Assembly: GCF_028641065.1 (NCBI RefSeq)
Contig: NC_073390.1
Location: forward strand, 47,616,001 to 47,680,000
Direction: 5' to 3'
Length of the DNA: 64,000 nucleotides
Origin: Leucoraja erinacea
Taxonomy: Eukaryota
In this document: positions 16,888 through 50,000 of the stretch, one piece after another
Numbering within the stretch: the stretch's first letter is position 1
How the letters are laid out: each line of letters begins with the position of its first letter
Translations under genes and position numbers: made by a program
The notes under the pieces: model-generated
The model's input: the letters and a program-made list of their open reading frames with translations, nothing else
What the model was told of the DNA's origin: nothing
The model's database searches: none

Positions 16888-18456
16888 AGAAACATAGAAA
16901 TTAGGTGCAGGAGTAGGCCATTCGGCCCTTCGAGCCTGCACCGCCATTCAATATGATCATGGCTGATCATCCAACTCAGTATCCCGTACCTCCCTTCTCT
17001 CCATACCCCCTGATCCCCTTAGCCACAAGGGCCACATCTAACTCCCTCTTAAATATAGCCAATGAACTGGCCTCAACTACCCTCTGTGGCAGAGAGTTCC
17101 AGAGATTCGCCACTCTCTGTGTGAAAAAAGTTATTCTCATCTCGGTTTTAAAGGATTTCCCCCTTATCCTTAAGCTGTGACCCCTTGTCCCTGACTTCCC
17201 CAACATCGGGAGCAATCTTCCTGCGTCTAGCCTGTCCAACCCCTTAAGAATTTTGTAAGTTTCTATAAGATCCCCTCTCAATCTCCTAAATTCTAGAGTG
17301 TAAACCAAGTCTATCCAGTCTTTCTTCATAAGACAGTCCTGACATCCCAGGAATCAGTCTGGTGAACCTTCTCTGCACTCCCTCTATGGCAATAATGTCC
17401 TTCCTCAGATTTGGAGACCAAAACTGTACGCAATACTCCAGGTGTGGTCTCACCAAGACCCTGTACAACTGCAGTAGAACCTCCCTGCTCCTATACTCAA
17501 ATCCTTTTGCAATGAAAGCTATACCATACCATTCGCTTTTACTGCCTGCTGCACCTGCATGCCTACCTTCAATGACTGGTGTACCATGACACCCAGGTCT
17601 CGCTGCATCTCCCCCTTTCCCAATCGGCCACCATTTAGATAATAGTCTGCTTTCCCGTTTTTGCCACCAAAATGGATAACCTCACATTTATCCACATTAT
17701 ACTGCATCTGCCAAACATTTGCCCACTCACCCAGCCTATCCAAGTCACATTGCAGTCTCCTAGCATCCTCCTCACAGCTAACACTGCCCCCCAGCTTAGT
17801 GTCATCCGCAAACTTGGAGATATTGCCTTCAATTCCCTCATCCAGATCATTAATATATATTGTAAATAGCTGGGGTCCCAGCACTGAGCCTTGCGGTACC
17901 CCACTAGTCACTGCCTGCCATTGTGCAAAGGACCCGTTTACTCCTACTCTTTGCTTCCTGTTTGCCAGCCAGTTCTCTATCCACATCAATACTGAACCCC
18001 CAATGCCTTGTGCTTTAAGTTTGTATACTAATCTCTTATGTGGGACCTTGTCGAAAGCCTTCTGGAAGTCCAGATACACCACATCCACTGGTTCTCCCCT
18101 ATCCACGCTACTAGTTACATCCTCGAAAAATTCTATAAGATTCGTCAGACATGATTTACCTTTCGTAAATCCATGCTGACTTTGTCCAATGATTTCACCA
18201 CTTTCCAAATGTGCTGCTATCCCATCTTTAATAACTGACTCAAGCAGTTTCCGCACTACCGATGTTAGACTAACTGGTCTGTAATTCCCCATTTTCTCTC
18301 CCCCTCCCTTCTTAAAAAGTGGGGTTACGTTTGCTACCCGCCAATCTTCAGGAACTACTCCAGAATCTAAAGAGTTTTGAAAGATTATTACTAATGCATC
18401 CACTATTTCTGGAGCTACTTCCTTAAGTACTCTGGGATGCAGCCTATCTGGCCCTG
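16888..18456 (-). mobile_element. Young CR1 LINE, 5'-truncated (RT domain plus 3' tail)
   Basis: ORF 17519..18472 has PGPDRLHPRVLKE, NYRPVSLTS, YLDFQKAFDKVPH, GVPQGSVLGP and KFADDTK; continues by frameshifts into ORFs 17286..17468 and 16976..17329. Confidence 0.96.
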
Positions 18457-18469
18457 GGGGCCAGGGCCC

Positions 18470-18912
18470 CACGAGGATGTTGCCAGGACTACAGGATGTG
18501 AGCTATCAGGAGAAGTTGAGTAGGCTGGGCCTGTATTCCATGGAGCGCAGGAAGGTGAGGGGGGATCGTATGGATGTGTACAAAACCATTAGAGGAATAG
18601 ATCGGGTGGATACAGTCTTTTGCCCAGAGTAGGGGAATAGAGGACCAGAGGACATGGGTTTAAGGTGAAAAGATTTAATAGGAATCCAAGGGGTAACTTT
18701 TTCACAATGGTGATGGGTGTATGGAACCAGCTGCCAGAGGAGGTAGTTGAGGCTGGGACTATCCCATTGTTTAAGTGACAGTTAGATAGGTACATAAATA
18801 GGACTGGTTTGGAAAGATATGGTCCAAGCACAGGCAAGTGGGTCTAGTGTAGCTGGGACAAGCATGGGTAAGTTGGGCCGAAGGGCCCGTTTCCACACCA
18901 TACCACTCTATG
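18470..18912 (+). mobile_element. CR1 LINE 3' fragment, different subfamily
   Basis: aggatgttgccagga...ttgggccgaagggcccgtttcc tail. Confidence 0.8.
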
Positions 18913-20042: not shown

Positions 20043-23000
20043 CTAAGGGAAGAAATCATAAACTGTCAACAAAATGTCACAAAACATTTGTTGTTGCTGC
20101 ACCAAATGAATCTGCTCTCAGTGAGCCAGGCATGTAAATCAAACAACCAAGATTCATGTCAATTGTTTGTTTGCCTTTTGTACAGCACTCATTTCCCCAT
20201 ATCCCAGAGAACCGGGACACAAACTGACAAATATACACCTCACTTTGACTATCCCGTTGTCGCACCCTCCCCCCCTTCCATTCCCTTCCTACGTCTGAGA
20301 CATATCAGACAACCCAATCAACAACGTCCAAATGCTTAGCCCTCACTGCCTCGCTTTACTATGGATCTTCAGTCCTTTGCTTTCATTCCCTTCAGGAAGA
20401 CATCATGGTTCTGTTTCTTCTAGAACAGAGACCCAACCAGATCCCACCATTTGCATTATTTTGTCCTCTTCACTTTATCATCTCCAGCTTTGGCTATCTC
20501 TACCCTTCTCACCCCCATTTGACGCATCAGCCAAGCACCCCTCTCCACCTGAACCAAACTTTCAATTGTTAGCTCTTGTCCAACTTCTTCCCCTCATCTC
20601 TTTCTACAAGCTATCTCCCCTCTACTCCAGTCATTGACCCACAATGTCATGTTCATCCCCCCTCCCTGCTGAGTTCTTCCAGCAATTTATCTTTTGCAAG
20701 TAAACTCCAGTTTTCCGAAGGAGAACTACATTGGAATTCAAGCAACATATAATCTGTCATCACCATAAAGCATTGATAATTTCCCATAGCCGGCCAAATT
20801 AAGACCAGTTGGTGCATCAGCTTGTCGAGTTGATGGCACAGTGGCGCAGCGGTAGAGTTGCTGCCTTACAGAGCCAGGATTATTTCCTCCCCTCCCACCA
20901 TGTCCCACCTTGCCCTTCAGATGAATGCAAGATGACATCATGACACTACATAAGCAATTCAATACTATTCAATACAATTCAATCTCTTTGGTTAATTCAT
21001 TGGCAATGGCGGCACCTTGCTGAGAGAAACTACTGCTCGAATTTCCTATATCTCAAGGCTTACTTTCTTTATAAGAGTTCTTAATTGCTTCTGAAATATT
21101 GCAGCGTGGCAGCAATAGTTTCCATTCTTATTGGAAACATCAAATGCAATTAAATAACATTTTTATAAGCAGTCTTAAATATTGAAGAATATTTGTTAAA
21201 CTAGGCTTAATACTATTTTATCCAGTCTTAAAAATTTGGTCATAAAATTTCTAGATTTTAGAGTGTTCTTATGGTTTTACACTGCTGTTACTTACATAAA
21301 TATAATGTGCAACAATTGAAACATTTCTGAAATCCAGCGCTGCATCAATCTCATCCATGAAGTATAATGGAGTAGGCTTGTAATGATGAAGTGCAAAAAC
21401 TAGAGCCAGAGAACTGAGAGTCTTCTCTCCACCAGAAATATTGAAAATCTTTTTCCAGCTTTTCTTTGGTGGACGCACACTAGAAGAACAGGTTAGGTTT
21501 CCATTAAAATTAAAGAAAACAAGCATTTCCCCCCCAAATTTAAATAATTTCAGTATTGGCCAACAGCAGCTGTTATTTAATCCTATTATTAAAATTAAAT
21601 TCCCATCTAATTAAATGATTTTATGTGACTAAAATTGCTCAAAAGAACGGGGCATTTATACGAGAAAAAAACCAACAGTTCCATTTGTTTTACAATAATT
21701 CTATGTTCAACTCTCGGGGTTTTAAACCCAGGTGCATTTCAATAATGGTCAGTCATGTACTTTTTTTTTCAAGGCTGCATGCTCAGCCCCCTGCGTTACT
21801 CACTCTATACTCATGACCGTGTAGCTGGTCATAGAGTGAACTCCATCATCAAGTTCGCCAACGACACCACTGTTGTGGGACGAATCACTGACGGTGACGA
21901 GTCAGAGTAAAGAAGTGAGATCGACCAATTGACCAAATGGTGCCAGCACAATAACCTGGCTCTCAACACCAGCAAATCCAAGGAACTGATTGTGGACTTT
22001 GGAAGGGGCAGGAGAGGGACCCACAACCCCATTTATATCAATGGTGGAAAGGGTCAAGAACTTAAAATTCCTGGACGTGCATATTTCCAAAGATCTTTCC
22101 CGGTCCCAGCACACTGATGAAATTATAAAGAAAGCACATCAGCGCCTCTACTTCCTGAGAGTCGTTATGTCAAAGAGGACTCTCTCGAACTTCTACAGGT
22201 GCACAGTAGAGAGCATGCATCGTGGCTTGGTAAGGCAACCTGAGCACCCAGGAGTGGAAAAGAATGCAAAAGGTTGTGACCACTGCCCAGTCCATCATCG
22301 GCTCTGACCTCCCCACCATCGAAGGGATCTATCACAGTCGCTGCCTCAAAAAGGCTGCCAACATCATCAAGGATCCACACCAACTGGCCACACACTCATC
22401 AGGTAGAAGGTACAGGAGCCTGAAATCTGGTACATGCAGGTTCAGGAACAGCTTCTTCCCCACAGCCATCAGGCTATTAAACTCGCCAACAAACAAACTT
22501 TGAACTATAATATCCTATTGCACTATATCTGTTTATTTATGTGTATGCTATACAGACACACTGAACTGTTCTGTATTTATGCTTACAATATTCTGTTGTG
22601 CTGCAGCAATGCAATAATTTCATTGTCCTATCTGGGACACATGACAATAAACTCTCTTGACTGGACGACTATATATATGGAAAAAATATTCCCACTGTTA
22701 AAAAAGTAGCACTCTTAGTACTTTTGGTCGGTAGTGTTCATGACTACAAATGAACAGTAAAACTAGCAGTTATAGTTACTGATAGTGTAGCATGAAGATA
22801 ATAAACATGAATAAATGTGATTTCAAGATGCTTGTCAGCATCCCATTTAATCTGGTAAACAAGGAGTGGAAAACAAAGTGTTGTCTAGACATGTCATGGT
22901 TCAAATTCCATTGGGCTTTATAATGCAATTATGTCAACACTTGTGTAAAAAGCAAAGTTTCCTACCTGAACAGAATTCCTTCAGAAAATGGGTCTAGACT

Positions 23001-26000
23001 GTCAACCAACTCCAGTTCAGCATCTCCACCTAGTGTAAGCATTTGGTAATTCTCCTTCAACTTATTGGTGATCATATTAAAGCCAGCCATAAATTCATTT
23101 AGACGCTGCTTCCTCAAGTCTTCAAAGGCACGTCTGAATTTATCACGCTGATCAGTAATTTCATCCAACTCGCCCACACGCTGCAGGTAGAGCTCTTCCT
23201 GCAGATAAACAGCACATTAAAAAAGGTTCAAATCTAACAAATGTAACCTCTACAAGACAAGCAAGAATTCCAGAACGTACTTTCTTCTTGTATGCAGCAA
23301 TTGAACCCAGGTTTGGCTTCATATCGAGGCACTTAGCTTCCAGAAGTGCAATCTGATTATTGATCACATCTGGATTGTTAATTACTTGCAGATCCATCTC
23401 ACTTAATTCTTTAAGTTCTTCTGCTGGTTTGTCAGATGGATGTAAAGAAAGCTTTGATATCTAGAGTCAAATTACAGAAAATTAAAAATAAAATGAAATA
23501 CATCTTATTTTAATTTAAACTTACTTTTCCATTTGTTCCATAAACAAGTCAGTCAAATAATACATCAAGATATCACAATAAAAACCTTAGTCACTAAAGC
23601 AGTAACAAAAAATAAAACCATCAACAAAAAGTTGTTTGGCAAGTCACTTTTCAGTTTTAAAGAGCTGATTAAGAAATTCGACAAGACTATTCATTTCCAA
23701 TATTTACTTTGTCTAAAATCAATGAAGCACAGAACTGGTCACTGAGGAAGGTTTGGCTGTCAGTCCTTTTAAAATTAAGTTCAAGCATGAACAGAAAGTT
23801 TAGCAGGCGTTTCACTGTAGGGGACTTTGCAGCAAACGTTCATTATGATCTCCCATTTCTTGCTTCCCACATACAGAGATAGTTGGACTCAAATCAATCA
23901 CAACTTAGTCACATTACCCCTCCTCTCAAATCAAGCTGGAGATCACCTGTACAAAGCCTGCAGGCCTCCCCAGATAAAAGCAGCAAAGTTAGCAGACTAT
24001 AAACGGAAACACATTTTTTCCTAGTTAATATAGCTTGGCTACTCCCTGCATAAACAATGTCATTAGCATCCTAACCATTTTAAAATAACGAGCTGTTTGC
24101 TATCCCTTACCTCTTTCTGCCAGAATTTAATTTTAGATTGGTGTTCTGCAATATGCCCGTCTATCTGTTCCAACTTTAGACGAATGTTAAGAGTTTCTTT
24201 CTGAAGTGCCTGTTGTTCTTCCTGAATTGCCTTAAGTTCTTGCAGTAAACAATTACGTTCGTCAGTTACAGTTGTTAAATGTTCCTATGGAAAATAGAAA
24301 AGACAAAGAGTAAACATATGATGCAAAAAAGATCTTTTAAACAATCCAAGATAGATTGGTATTTATTTCAATTGTCCAAATGATCTTGCTAACGTACCTT
24401 AATCGGCAAAGACAAATTCATCTGTTAAAATATTTTAGAGAATTTTATAATGGAAATTTGGGAAAGTGAAGACCCTGAATACATATGAAATACTAACTTT
24501 TCATTGTGAATTATCTAACGACACATACTTGCAAAGTTCATGTTTACTAAAGCCCCAGATAAATTCTGTCAATGTTAAAATAGCATTATACAACATGGAA
24601 ACAATCTACAGGCCGTCCACACCAACCTAGATGCCTATCCAAGCAAATCCTATTTGCTTGTACTTAGTCCATATTTCTCTAGACCTTTCCTCTGTAACAA
24701 CGTACTTAGTCCATATTTCTCTAGACCTTTCCTCTGTAACAACATGTTCTGTACCTGGGCTTCAGTGCTTTCTTTGAGCACAATAGCACCCTCTTCCTCC
24801 AATCTTTTCAGTTCTTTTGTTAGATCTTCAATCTCTTTTTTGTTCTCTTCAATTTCTTCTCCGATTCGCTTCACCGATTCTTCTGCTTTTTTAAAATTTC
24901 TGAAAAGGTAATATTTATGACATTTTTTTGTATGAATAAGAATCAAATGATCAATCAGTTCGAACAGCACAATCATGACCAATAGTTGCTGATTTAAGAA
25001 TGGATCAATAGGCAAGATACTAAAAATAAATGCTGCACCCAGTGTTGAGGCCAGAATGCAATGAATTTCCCTAATGATAGCCATTGGAAACAATGCCAGG
25101 GGCTGTGAACAGAGACCAGAGTAGATTCGATGTTAAAATGATAGCCAACGGGAAACTTGTAGCTCCTAAACAGGAGGTATAACACAAAGTAGTCACCCTA
25201 ATCTCAGGGTTTACATAATATAGAATTGCAGGTTGGTACAAGACAACTTCAAGATTTCAAATATAGAAAAGCATTAAACAGCACAAAATATGTTAAAAAA
25301 AAATATGCAAAAGAATAACTTTAGCTTTCTAAATGCAACATATTTTCAAAAATTCCTCATGGCTGTAAGACCTATGATGCCATTGATGTACTTATGCATT
25401 AAGGATATCAATCTATAGTGCTGTGAAAAAAGAACGGATGAGGAATGGGCCAGGGCTCTGTGGAGAGAGCACGTTAAAGTGGAGTACAAGATAAATTCTC
25501 TCATTGCATCACAATGAAGGTGGCAGAAGAAAATCCTCTGACAGTAATGGCGGATGGGTGGAAAGTGAGTTTAAAGGAAACTTCTCAGTTCTGGAAGACA
25601 ATGGGACCAAAGCAGAAATGTGCTAATTGAGATGAACTTTGTCAAGGTCTCCATGTATTAACATTCAATACAATTGAGAAGCAGGGAGAAAGAGAAGGTT
25701 TTAAGACTTTTATCTTGAGAAATACAGGCACAGAAGAAGGGAAGTTGAAGTCAAGGTTAAAAATGGAAGCAGATTTGATTAATATTTCCCATTTAAATCA
25801 GGACAAAAACAGAAATTGGCTCAGTTCAAAAGTAGAGGACTGAAGCAGGATAAAAATGAATGTTCCACGCAAACCATTAAAATAATCTATTTAAGTGACT
25901 CAAATTAAAAATAAGTAATTTAAGGTAGAACAAGCTTAGAGAGGGCAATTGTGAATGGGATTAGGTTGTGATGGGTTCACGAAACATGGGGCCACTAGTC

Positions 26001-47000: not shown

Positions 47001-50000
47001 GTATAAACAACCCTACTAGATATAAAGTAAGACTGATGGAATCCGGGAGGCGCTACAGGTCTCTCCGTTGCTGAACCAGCAGGTCGAGGAACAGCTTCTT
47101 TCCGGCGGCTGTCACTCTACTCAACAACGTACCTCGGTGACTGCCAATCAGCGCCCGGGTCTCTGGCGCTGAGAGGCAGACGTTCTACTGCTGCACCACA
47201 GTGTTGCCCTAAAGTTTTGATATACTTAAGGACTGCCAATCACCACCCCCCCCCGGACACTTATTATTTTTTATTCAAATCGTTTGCTATGTCGCTCGTC
47301 AAGAGAGATGCTAAATGCATTTTGTTGTCTCTGTACTGTACACTGACAATGACAATTAAAATTGAATCTGAATCTGAATGAAGGCAGTAAAGTAAAATAT
47401 GACAATTGTATCAGATAAACCTGCAACTGAAGTGCTTAAAAGGTTATACATTGAACCATTAAAATATTAAAAACTCTTCACATCTATTCCTGTTCATTTA
47501 ATAAGGTTAGTGACAACACTGTTGAACAAGGTGCAATTTTCACTACTCTTGTTAACTAATCCTGGGTCAATGTTCAGTTCACAAAATTATGATGGACGCA
47601 ATGTTAAGTTTTGTTTGTCTTTAATATTCCGTTGGAAATACAATGGACTTTTTTGAAAGAAACATTTCAGCAAGCAGTGCACACAAATTTTGCTCCACAC
47701 AAACTAAATGGACTTCCTCCAACAGCAAACATTTCATTGTTAACATGGAAAAAATGGAATGAATCTCTTCAAATACATTTTTGGTGGCGACCAAACCATG
47801 TCACGCTGCAGCAGCACAAGTAATATTGGCGTTTTTTGGTTTGATTATTACCACGCCAATATTTACGTGCTGCTAAAGCGTAACTGGCATTTCATTTATG
47901 TGTGTCCCCAAAGATTTCTTGGATTATGTAGGAAATGTTGTTAACCAAAGCAATACATTGCATTGGAAATCATTTTGTTTCTGGTTTAACCATAAATCAC
48001 TAAAGCAGCAAATAATGGTTTGAGTTATGAAAGCAGCCCTGCAAACCATGATGTGCTGCTACAGCAATTTAAGGGCACAAGGAAAACATTTCACAATCTT
48101 TATTTCTTCAATGTGCATTGTGTTTTCATTTGAAAGAACACTTTAATTGCAAGTAAATACAGTTCAAGGTAATCTGAAAAGACCTACCTGAAGAATCAAA
48201 AATCTGTTGTGATCCAGATCGATTCCATGACTGCGAAGCAATATTCCTACATCTTTAAATGTCGATTTCTTTCCATTAATATGGTAAACAGAAGAATTGT
48301 CCTTGTAGGCAGTTCTTGAGACGTAGAATTTGCTATTTGGAATAACTTCAAAATCATCACCCTCCTTTCATTAAAAGCAGTTTTGAAAAAAAAAGTTTAA
48401 TAACTCAAAGCTGCAGCATATGGCATATTCAACAATTATGTTTTCTGTTAGCAGTGCAAAAGCCAACTACAAGACAATCACCTTTCAATTACATCGGATT
48501 AATAAAGGACAATAGAATGGAACAATCATTCGAGTGCTTAAATATAGATTTTAGAAATTAAATGTTAAAATTATTGGTCATACAACTTACTCAGCACATC
48601 TGTCATCTAGCAATGTCCAAAAGCAAGTATTGTGTGCTTAATGCAGCTAATTTTAAACAGCGAAACACCAAATCTCCTCCAATTTTTTATTTTACAAGGG
48701 GGAAAAATTCACCCTCAACTGTCATTTTCACTGCATTAAATATCTATTTGTTAGTTATATTATGAAATCACAGATTTAGTTAAAATATTGGTATGCGGGT
48801 ATAACAATTTAAAAGAAAGTTTTTTGGCAAGAAATTTGTTAAAATTTCTGACCTTTGTTTGCATTGTCCATTGACTAGTCAATTGATTGAAAAATCTGGA
48901 ATGTGATTAGCTGGTTTATTTGAAAAATTCATTTCTCTTAGCAGACATTATAGATGCCTGCTGTACTTAAATGAGCACAAGTAAAAAAAAATGTTTTATT
49001 GCTTACAGTAACATTTCACTTGTGCCAATTGAAAACAGAAAAACAAAGCAAATTAAGAGATTCAACAATTTATCCTTGCTTAAAAAGCCAGGACAATTAG
49101 TTAATTACCTACTTCATCTTCCACTAATTTACAAGAACCCAACCACAGAAAATTAAAAAGTGAAGTGATCTTAGTTAAAAATGTACTGTGCTTCAACTTT
49201 TAAACAGCATAAATGAAAATAAGTTTGAAATTAACAATTTTTAGCTTCTTTTAAAAAATTGACAATTACCTTATCTATGATCTTTTGAAAGTGAACTTCA
49301 ACAGTACAGCTCTGAATGTCTTTGTGTTCATCGGAATGGTGAATGAGTACAGACAATTTTTTGGAGCGAATTTTTTGGGCCCTGTACCCAAAAACAAACA
49401 GCATTGAATCAATCACATTTGATTTCCCACTCCCATTTGGTCCAATAATACAAGAAAATCTCTGCAAAGAAAAAAAAGTAACAGAAAATTGTAGATTTTA
49501 CATGTAATTTTTCATAACTATTATTAATGTTGAGCATGTTCAGTGGGCATAGCATGTGATGTACTCTACTGCCAGCCGTCCACTCACACAATTAGCTTGA
49601 AATTATTTCCCTTTCACAGCAAAGATATTAAATATTATTTATTTCATTTTTTTGGTAAAAGAAATTCAATAAAAAATCCAAAAAAAAAATCACAGGACAC
49701 CGTATCTTAAATTCACATCAATTCTAAATTTAGGGGAACTGATCAAGCATTTTGTAGTTTCACATCTCCACCCAAAATGTTTCACAACCTATAGTTTCTC
49801 AGCCACAGGTTAAAAAAATGAAAAAGATATTTCTTAAGATGAACTCACAGAATAATAGACAATAGGTGCATAAGTAGGCTATTCGGCCCTTCGATACATA
49901 TTTATTTTTATTTTACCTTGTGAAAAGGACCCAGAATTTGTTCTTGAGCATACGATTTGAAATTTTGATTCACTATATGTGTAATCATGAGACGAGGAGC

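Follow-up and report, generated by a model that had tools for sequence, protein, structure and literature searches.

The SMC4 gene and its signature motif

The window, i.e. the complete 64-kb stretch of Leucoraja erinacea DNA analysed here, was searched by tblastn with shark and ray SMC4 proteins, which placed 23 exons within it. After splice sites were chosen, a model was obtained in which all introns are of the GT-AG type and the sole stop codon is terminal. It is identical to a Leucoraja erinacea record (P0145) in 1298 of 1298 residues and to the Amblyraja radiata protein in 1289 residues. The following features are relevant for the analysis:

51735->19872, minus strand: complete SMC4 coding gene (23 exons, 3897 nt, 1298 aa)
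49944..49946, minus strand: CAA codon of Gln102 in the N-terminal FKSYAx loop, a second and separate anomaly
21296..21479, minus strand: exon 22 with W-loop, signature, Walker B (FMDE) and D-loop with FR pair; intact, with AG/GT ends, and spliced in two RNA-like contigs
21455..21457, minus strand: W-loop residue Trp1189, corresponding to human W1185 and yeast W1317; unaltered, six residues ahead of Ile1195
21437..21439, minus strand: ATT codon of Ile1195, the first residue of the SMC4 ABC signature (human L1191, yeast L1323)
21425..21439, minus strand: ABC signature motif ISGGE, touching the ATP on SMC2 Walker A/B (ATPase site 2, AS2; site assignment according to PMC6900782 and PMC6591010)

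The gene was assigned to SMC4 on the basis of similarity, architecture and motifs. Record P0148, which is 99% identical to the skate protein, scored 1959 bits against human SMC4 (9f5w_B), compared to 217 bits for SMC1A and 147 bits for SMC2, and in trees the skate protein clusters with vertebrate SMC4. The model has the full-length head-coil-hinge-coil-head architecture with SMC4 as its nearest relative. The motifs GPNGSGKSN, LQGEVE, FMDEIDAALD, IISLR and KSWK, representing the Walker A, Q-loop, Walker B, D-loop, H-loop and W-loop set, are intact, and the conserved columns at these elements are unchanged. The canonical LSGGE is absent and replaced by ISGGE, with the SGGE core retained: positions 21442-21422 of the minus strand read AAT ATT TCT GGT GGA GAG AAG (N-I-S-G-G-E-K). 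This variant leaves the skate protein inside the SMC4 family.

The ISGGE reading of the preliminary description, with its codon at 21439-21437, was thus confirmed. It had been asked there whether reads or RNA would show CTT instead. Of eight sequencing runs compared as contigs, six span the codon, and none of the six carries a differing letter or CTT; these six come from four other organisms and one unlabelled run, while the possible assembly-source runs X1 and X2 give no coverage and run X4 is weak with the codon less than 31 letters from the contig end. The contigs of X15 and X17 break at 21295/21481 and read on into exons 23 and 21, which identifies them as spliced transcripts of relatives with ATT. 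Neither of these two spliced contigs holds an alternative letter that would point to RNA editing of the isoleucine codon, with the proviso that contigs drop rare variants. When exon 22 was compared with the skate genome in a search scoring the best candidates only, one SMC4 match was found; the other two matches were SMC3-like and SMC2-like exons, both with LSGGQ. One skate SMC1-type exon reads LSGGE, and a signature pattern search of the skate genome detected no second SMC1 gene. An assembly error, a pseudogene or a diverged paralogue as the source of ISGGE is therefore excluded for practical purposes, given ATT in the six other runs, the spliced contigs, the intact 23-exon model, the single copy found and the presence of isoleucine in 19 further species.

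Two further observations were made in the neighbourhood. Broken reverse-transcriptase-like frames, presumably resembling a CR1-type LINE, are located 3′ of SMC4 on the minus strand (16976-18502), and a short tandem duplication lies right past exon 18 (24650-24760), where the peptide NMLLQRKGLEKYGLST recurs in an intron frame.

Distribution and origin of the isoleucine

Six elasmobranch clusters (100% identity to exon 22) comprised 39 records, of which 33 contain the motif and 6 do not. Isoleucine is present in 32 of the 33 motif-bearing records and leucine in one. At the species level, isoleucine was found in 20 of 21 sharks and rays, namely 12 sharks, including the squalomorph Pristiophorus, and 8 batoids with the little skate counted. 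The sole exception with leucine is the hexanchiform Heptranchias perlo (P0129), and in the chimaera Callorhinchus leucine is present in all 12 records. The picture of a species-level oddity implied at the outset was consequently too narrow, and the change is fixed clade-wide.

Outside the chondrichthyans, leucine was found in 365 of 370 distinct SMC4 records and isoleucine in 5. These records represent the best 120, 150 and 120 of thousands of hits from three homologue searches, so that the sample is biased toward the queries; two of the queries carried the isoleucine of the skate gene and the third that of a second isoleucine lineage. Since leucine prevails although all three queries carried isoleucine, the counts support the near-invariance of leucine outside sharks and rays, and the expectation that isoleucine is uncommon among SMC4 orthologues was borne out there. 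The five exceptions (P0308-P0312) belong to one fast-evolving, long-branch lineage of microbial eukaryotes and trace back to a metagenome scan for isoleucine, methionine or valine at the signature site, in which one locus (L004:301-335) was detected. The record nearest to these five, P0313, has leucine, and ISGGE was fixed independently in that lineage. The five records are changed at 22 of 193 otherwise conserved columns. Their Walker A motif reads GANGSGKS instead of the usual GPNGSGKS.

A corresponding pattern scan (isoleucine, methionine or valine) of prokaryotic SMC-like signatures yielded at least 120 loci, with methionine in all 120 listed. MSGGE occurs in many prokaryotic SMC-like proteins (L038-L157), among them those of Coriobacteriia, haloarchaea and Gastranaerophilales. 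Leucine is not universal across the SMC family, and judging from the sequences sampled, beta-branched residues are rare there. The claim of a nearly invariant signature leucine in SMC proteins accordingly held for the eukaryotic SMC2 and SMC4 proteins sampled but not for prokaryotic SMC, in which methionine is widespread.

A 25-row tree of SMC4 proteins shows Heptranchias as sister to all 18 isoleucine rows (99/98), and with the isoleucine column removed the branch that leaves Heptranchias outside persists in a set of 18 rows (SH-aLRT 98). A clade of sharks plus Heptranchias was rejected by the AU test (p 0.004; LG+G4 without mixture; 18 rows). Nine columns, including 1195, unite Heptranchias and Callorhinchus against sharks and batoids, and at six of these the bony vertebrates carry the Heptranchias state; two columns favour shark monophyly. 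As the SMC4 tree places Heptranchias outside, isoleucine arose once and without reversal in the history of this gene.

The tree agrees with the ultraconserved-element tree of 10.64898/2026.02.13.705779, in which the split is dated to about 278-288 Ma and the remaining elasmobranchs to about 256 Ma. The SMC4 tree disagrees, by contrast, with the exon trees of the same study and with the filtered tree of 10.1101/2025.08.19.671162. The latter attributes the Hexanchiformes-outside signal to rate differences, and the Heptranchias branch is short in the SMC4 tree (0.027), which is the condition under which such an artefact is claimed. A single gene with a single hexanchiform is not enough to decide the dispute over shark monophyly, and a reversal to the favoured leucine is the homoplasy most easily imagined for Heptranchias. 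Because the site hardly ever varies, residue 1195 of SMC4 also makes an inexpensive marker for the contested root of the shark and ray tree.

Possible consequences for condensin

Skate I1195 aligns to L1323 of yeast Smc4 and to L1191 of human SMC4, the latter once the 17-residue shift of the deposited chain is taken into account. The Smc4 signature sits on the second ATP, held by Smc2, and is linked to the adjoining W-loop, which binds Ycs4/CAP-D2; head dimers with a mutated W-loop behave like those with a mutated signature (PMC6591010). The signature leucine is described as universally conserved by Elbatsh et al. 2019 (PMC6900782), who name AS2 a "dampener" ATPase site of condensin with its purpose left open. 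According to the same study, cells with SMC4 L1191V (AS2-LV) are viable and pass through mitosis with the usual timing, their chromosomes being shorter and segregation errors somewhat more frequent; yeast condensin with Smc4 L1323V doubles the rate of DNA compaction, its ATPase activity being very subtly altered, and AS2-LV condensin forms about threefold fewer Z-loops and partly rescues the loss of CAP-H2. The equivalent valine in SMC2 (AS1-LV) halves the ATPase activity and results in fuzzy chromosomes and cells that are not normal (PMC6900782). In cohesin, Smc1 L1129V blocks release (PMC4769319), and the fission-yeast alleles Psm1 L1132T and Psm3 L1097P are temperature-sensitive (PMC9388089). 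The leucine-to-valine mutants mentioned in the preliminary description are hence real, both the hyper-condensing SMC4 alleles and the cohesin allele that resists release.

The skate gene is an ordinary SMC4. No earlier report of the change in sharks and rays and no leucine-to-isoleucine assay at an SMC signature were found in the literature searched, with subscription papers and supplements mostly outside its scope, and the accessible parts of PMC6039025 and 10.1101/2022.06.24.497451 yielded nothing on this substitution.

By analogy with the engineered mutants, the reading tentatively preferred here, though at slightly less than even odds, is that Ile1195 may do naturally, and to a lesser degree, what the leucine-to-valine exchange does at AS2. 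The SMC4 signature closes over the SMC2-bound ATP at AS2, the site that dampens compaction, and a beta-branched isoleucine would slightly mis-seat the signature loop on closure, so that condensin I and II might be shifted a little toward separate, longer loops. The residue probably arose through a single base substitution on the branch excluding Hexanchiformes and could have become fixed because AS2 is a forgiving site; the change need not have been adaptive. The skate protein shares the residue, the subunit and the ATPase site with AS2-LV, and both replacements are beta-branched; as in AS2-LV, the SMC4 signature leucine is substituted with the SMC2 signature unchanged. It differs in carrying isoleucine instead of valine and in being natural and fixed for about 250 My rather than engineered, and a phenotype is known for AS2-LV alone. 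An effect of the beta-branched residue is favoured by the phenotypes of valine in Smc1, Smc3, Smc2 and Smc4 and of threonine in Psm1, and some support is provided by the 120 listed prokaryotic non-leucine signatures, which have methionine and never isoleucine or valine. The viability and undisturbed mitotic timing of AS2-LV cells, as against the abnormal AS1-LV cells, indicate that AS2 is the tolerant site. The cohesin counterparts Smc1 L1129V/SMC1A L1128V and Smc3 L1126V (PMC4769319) and Psm1 L1132T (PMC9388089) are likewise exchanges of the equivalent leucine for a beta-branched residue that are viable with altered function, but they affect cohesin and not condensin, and the SMC3 gene and one SMC1-type gene of the skate retain leucine.

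A large effect is opposed by the natural ISGGE of two ABC transporters that hydrolyse ATP, yeast Atm1 (PMC8694623) and Arabidopsis ABCG25 (10.1101/2023.09.22.559085). They resemble skate SMC4 in having isoleucine at the first signature position of a working ABC ATPase; they differ as homodimeric membrane transporters, and their tolerance may not extend to SMC heads. A natural non-leucine residue is also found at this position in prokaryotic Smc with MSGGE, but methionine is not beta-branched and this Smc is homodimeric. In fission yeast, about 2,200 integrants covering 10 cohesin positions were screened, and none of the five temperature-sensitive mutants recovered was an isoleucine allele, which counts against a phenotype of isoleucine, although non-phenotypic and lethal alleles were not distinguished there (PMC9388089). 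Isoleucine also has the size of leucine and valine is smaller, so that isoleucine would not mimic valine if valine acts via a cavity.

The explanation ranked second is considered almost equally likely. According to it, isoleucine is equivalent to leucine within measurement, drifted to fixation in a forerunner of most sharks and rays, and was never selected back. It is consistent with a conservative, same-size swap one base away, with active transporters using ISGGE, with the retention of isoleucine in 20 species since a common ancestor placed at about 256 Ma (10.64898/2026.02.13.705779), and with the only subtle ATPase change caused even by valine at AS2. The residue also arose again in an unrelated lineage; P0308-P0312 share an independently fixed ISGGE with sharks and rays, and differ in their long branch and their many changed conserved columns. 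Fixation in a lineage so altered counts against a weakened AS2 as well. Against equivalence stand the 365 of 370 records with leucine together with the lack of isoleucine and valine among the at least 120 prokaryotic non-leucine signatures, which argue for selection against beta-branched residues, and the phenotypes of valine and threonine. A selection coefficient too small for laboratory measurement would, however, suffice to keep leucine elsewhere, and this population-genetic consideration speaks against an AS2-LV-like effect, as do the ordinary type II genome architecture of the skate (PMC10115646) and the lack of a shark chromosome phenotype in the literature searched.

An adaptive de-dampening of the strength of valine, favoured by selection because genomes are large or chromosomes numerous, or offsetting a weak condensin II, is improbable. 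The isolation of the change within such a conserved protein would fit it. Newts have very large genomes and the newt record P0046 retains leucine, so that a link to genome size was dropped. A link to urea-rich body fluids was dropped as well, as chimaeras and hexanchiforms have such fluids like other sharks and rays and keep leucine. The shorter chromosomes of AS2-LV cells and the partial rescue of CAP-H2 loss would agree with adaptation, while the reduced segregation fidelity of these cells opposes it (PMC6900782). No supporting phenotype was found in the literature searched, and the skate is reported to possess all condensin II subunits (PMC10115646), so that isoleucine is not a substitute for a lost condensin II.

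A broader proposal combines the weakened AS2 with the gene tree. All sharks and rays except the six- and seven-gill lineage would run a naturally de-dampened condensin, following a leucine-to-isoleucine change about 250-290 My ago, with fewer Z-loops and longer mitotic loops as a wild-type counterpart of AS2-LV, and isoleucine would mark a clade excluding Hexanchiformes, with sharks not monophyletic. By analogy this is conceivable but unlikely.

The substitution is a conservative swap, clade-wide, at a residue with a striking known mutant, to which an effect is ascribed by analogy. A vertebrate clade with isoleucine for about 250 My beside relatives with leucine (Heptranchias, chimaera) offers a ready allele and a natural comparison, which bears on whether beta-branching or side-chain size causes the valine phenotype and on whether AS2 damping was tuned in evolution. 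If isoleucine behaves as wild type, only a footnote on motif conservation remains.

Other positions in SMC4 and its partners

Among 193 columns with a conservation of 97% or more across 53 outside rows, 1195 alone is altered in all 18 full-length isoleucine rows. With a single column changed clade-wide, SMC4 is not generally relaxed in these species, and no other conserved column of the SMC4 head was found to be changed in the isoleucine clade only. K1232R at the tip of the D-loop and I1267V were rejected as compensation, being common to Heptranchias and frequent in distant eukaryotes.

It is very doubtful that isoleucine acts through, or is compensated by, the contact of W-loop and D-loop with CAP-D2/CAP-D3 and kleisin rather than through ATP closure. 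The W-loop tryptophan precedes it by six residues and mutants of both elements are alike (PMC6591010), but the W-loop residues are unchanged, and K1232R occurs in Heptranchias and commonly elsewhere. In a Cnd1 family search of the skate genome for the KG-loops of CAP-D2/CAP-D3, most of the exons retrieved resemble adaptins, and one, L034, resembles CAP-D3 but lacks the loop. The presence of L034 in the skate genome also argues against an adaptive offset of condensin II.

The SMC2 signature in the skate genome retains leucine, as do all 86 motif-bearing SMC2 records (120 records in total). No compensating change was found in the Walker A, Q-loop, signature, Walker B and H-loop segments of SMC2, which match other vertebrates in the four elasmobranch species compared (skate, Mustelus, Scyliorhinus and Heptranchias, without a chimaera). 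SMC2 residue 164 (L024:1510-1626) is leucine in skate, Mustelus and Scyliorhinus and methionine in Heptranchias and in 20 of 20 bony vertebrates. Despite tracking the isoleucine clade in this small sample, M164L was set aside as compensation because yeast Smc2 also has leucine; it is another character with the Hexanchiformes-outside pattern.

The second anomaly of the gene, Gln102, concerns another almost invariant position of the SMC4 head that differs among elasmobranchs. Residue 102 of SMC4, which presumably lies near SMC4's own ATP pocket, is glycine in 52 of 52 non-elasmobranch rows and in 9 galeomorph sharks, glutamine in 8 of 8 batoids, and arginine in Pristiophorus and Heptranchias.
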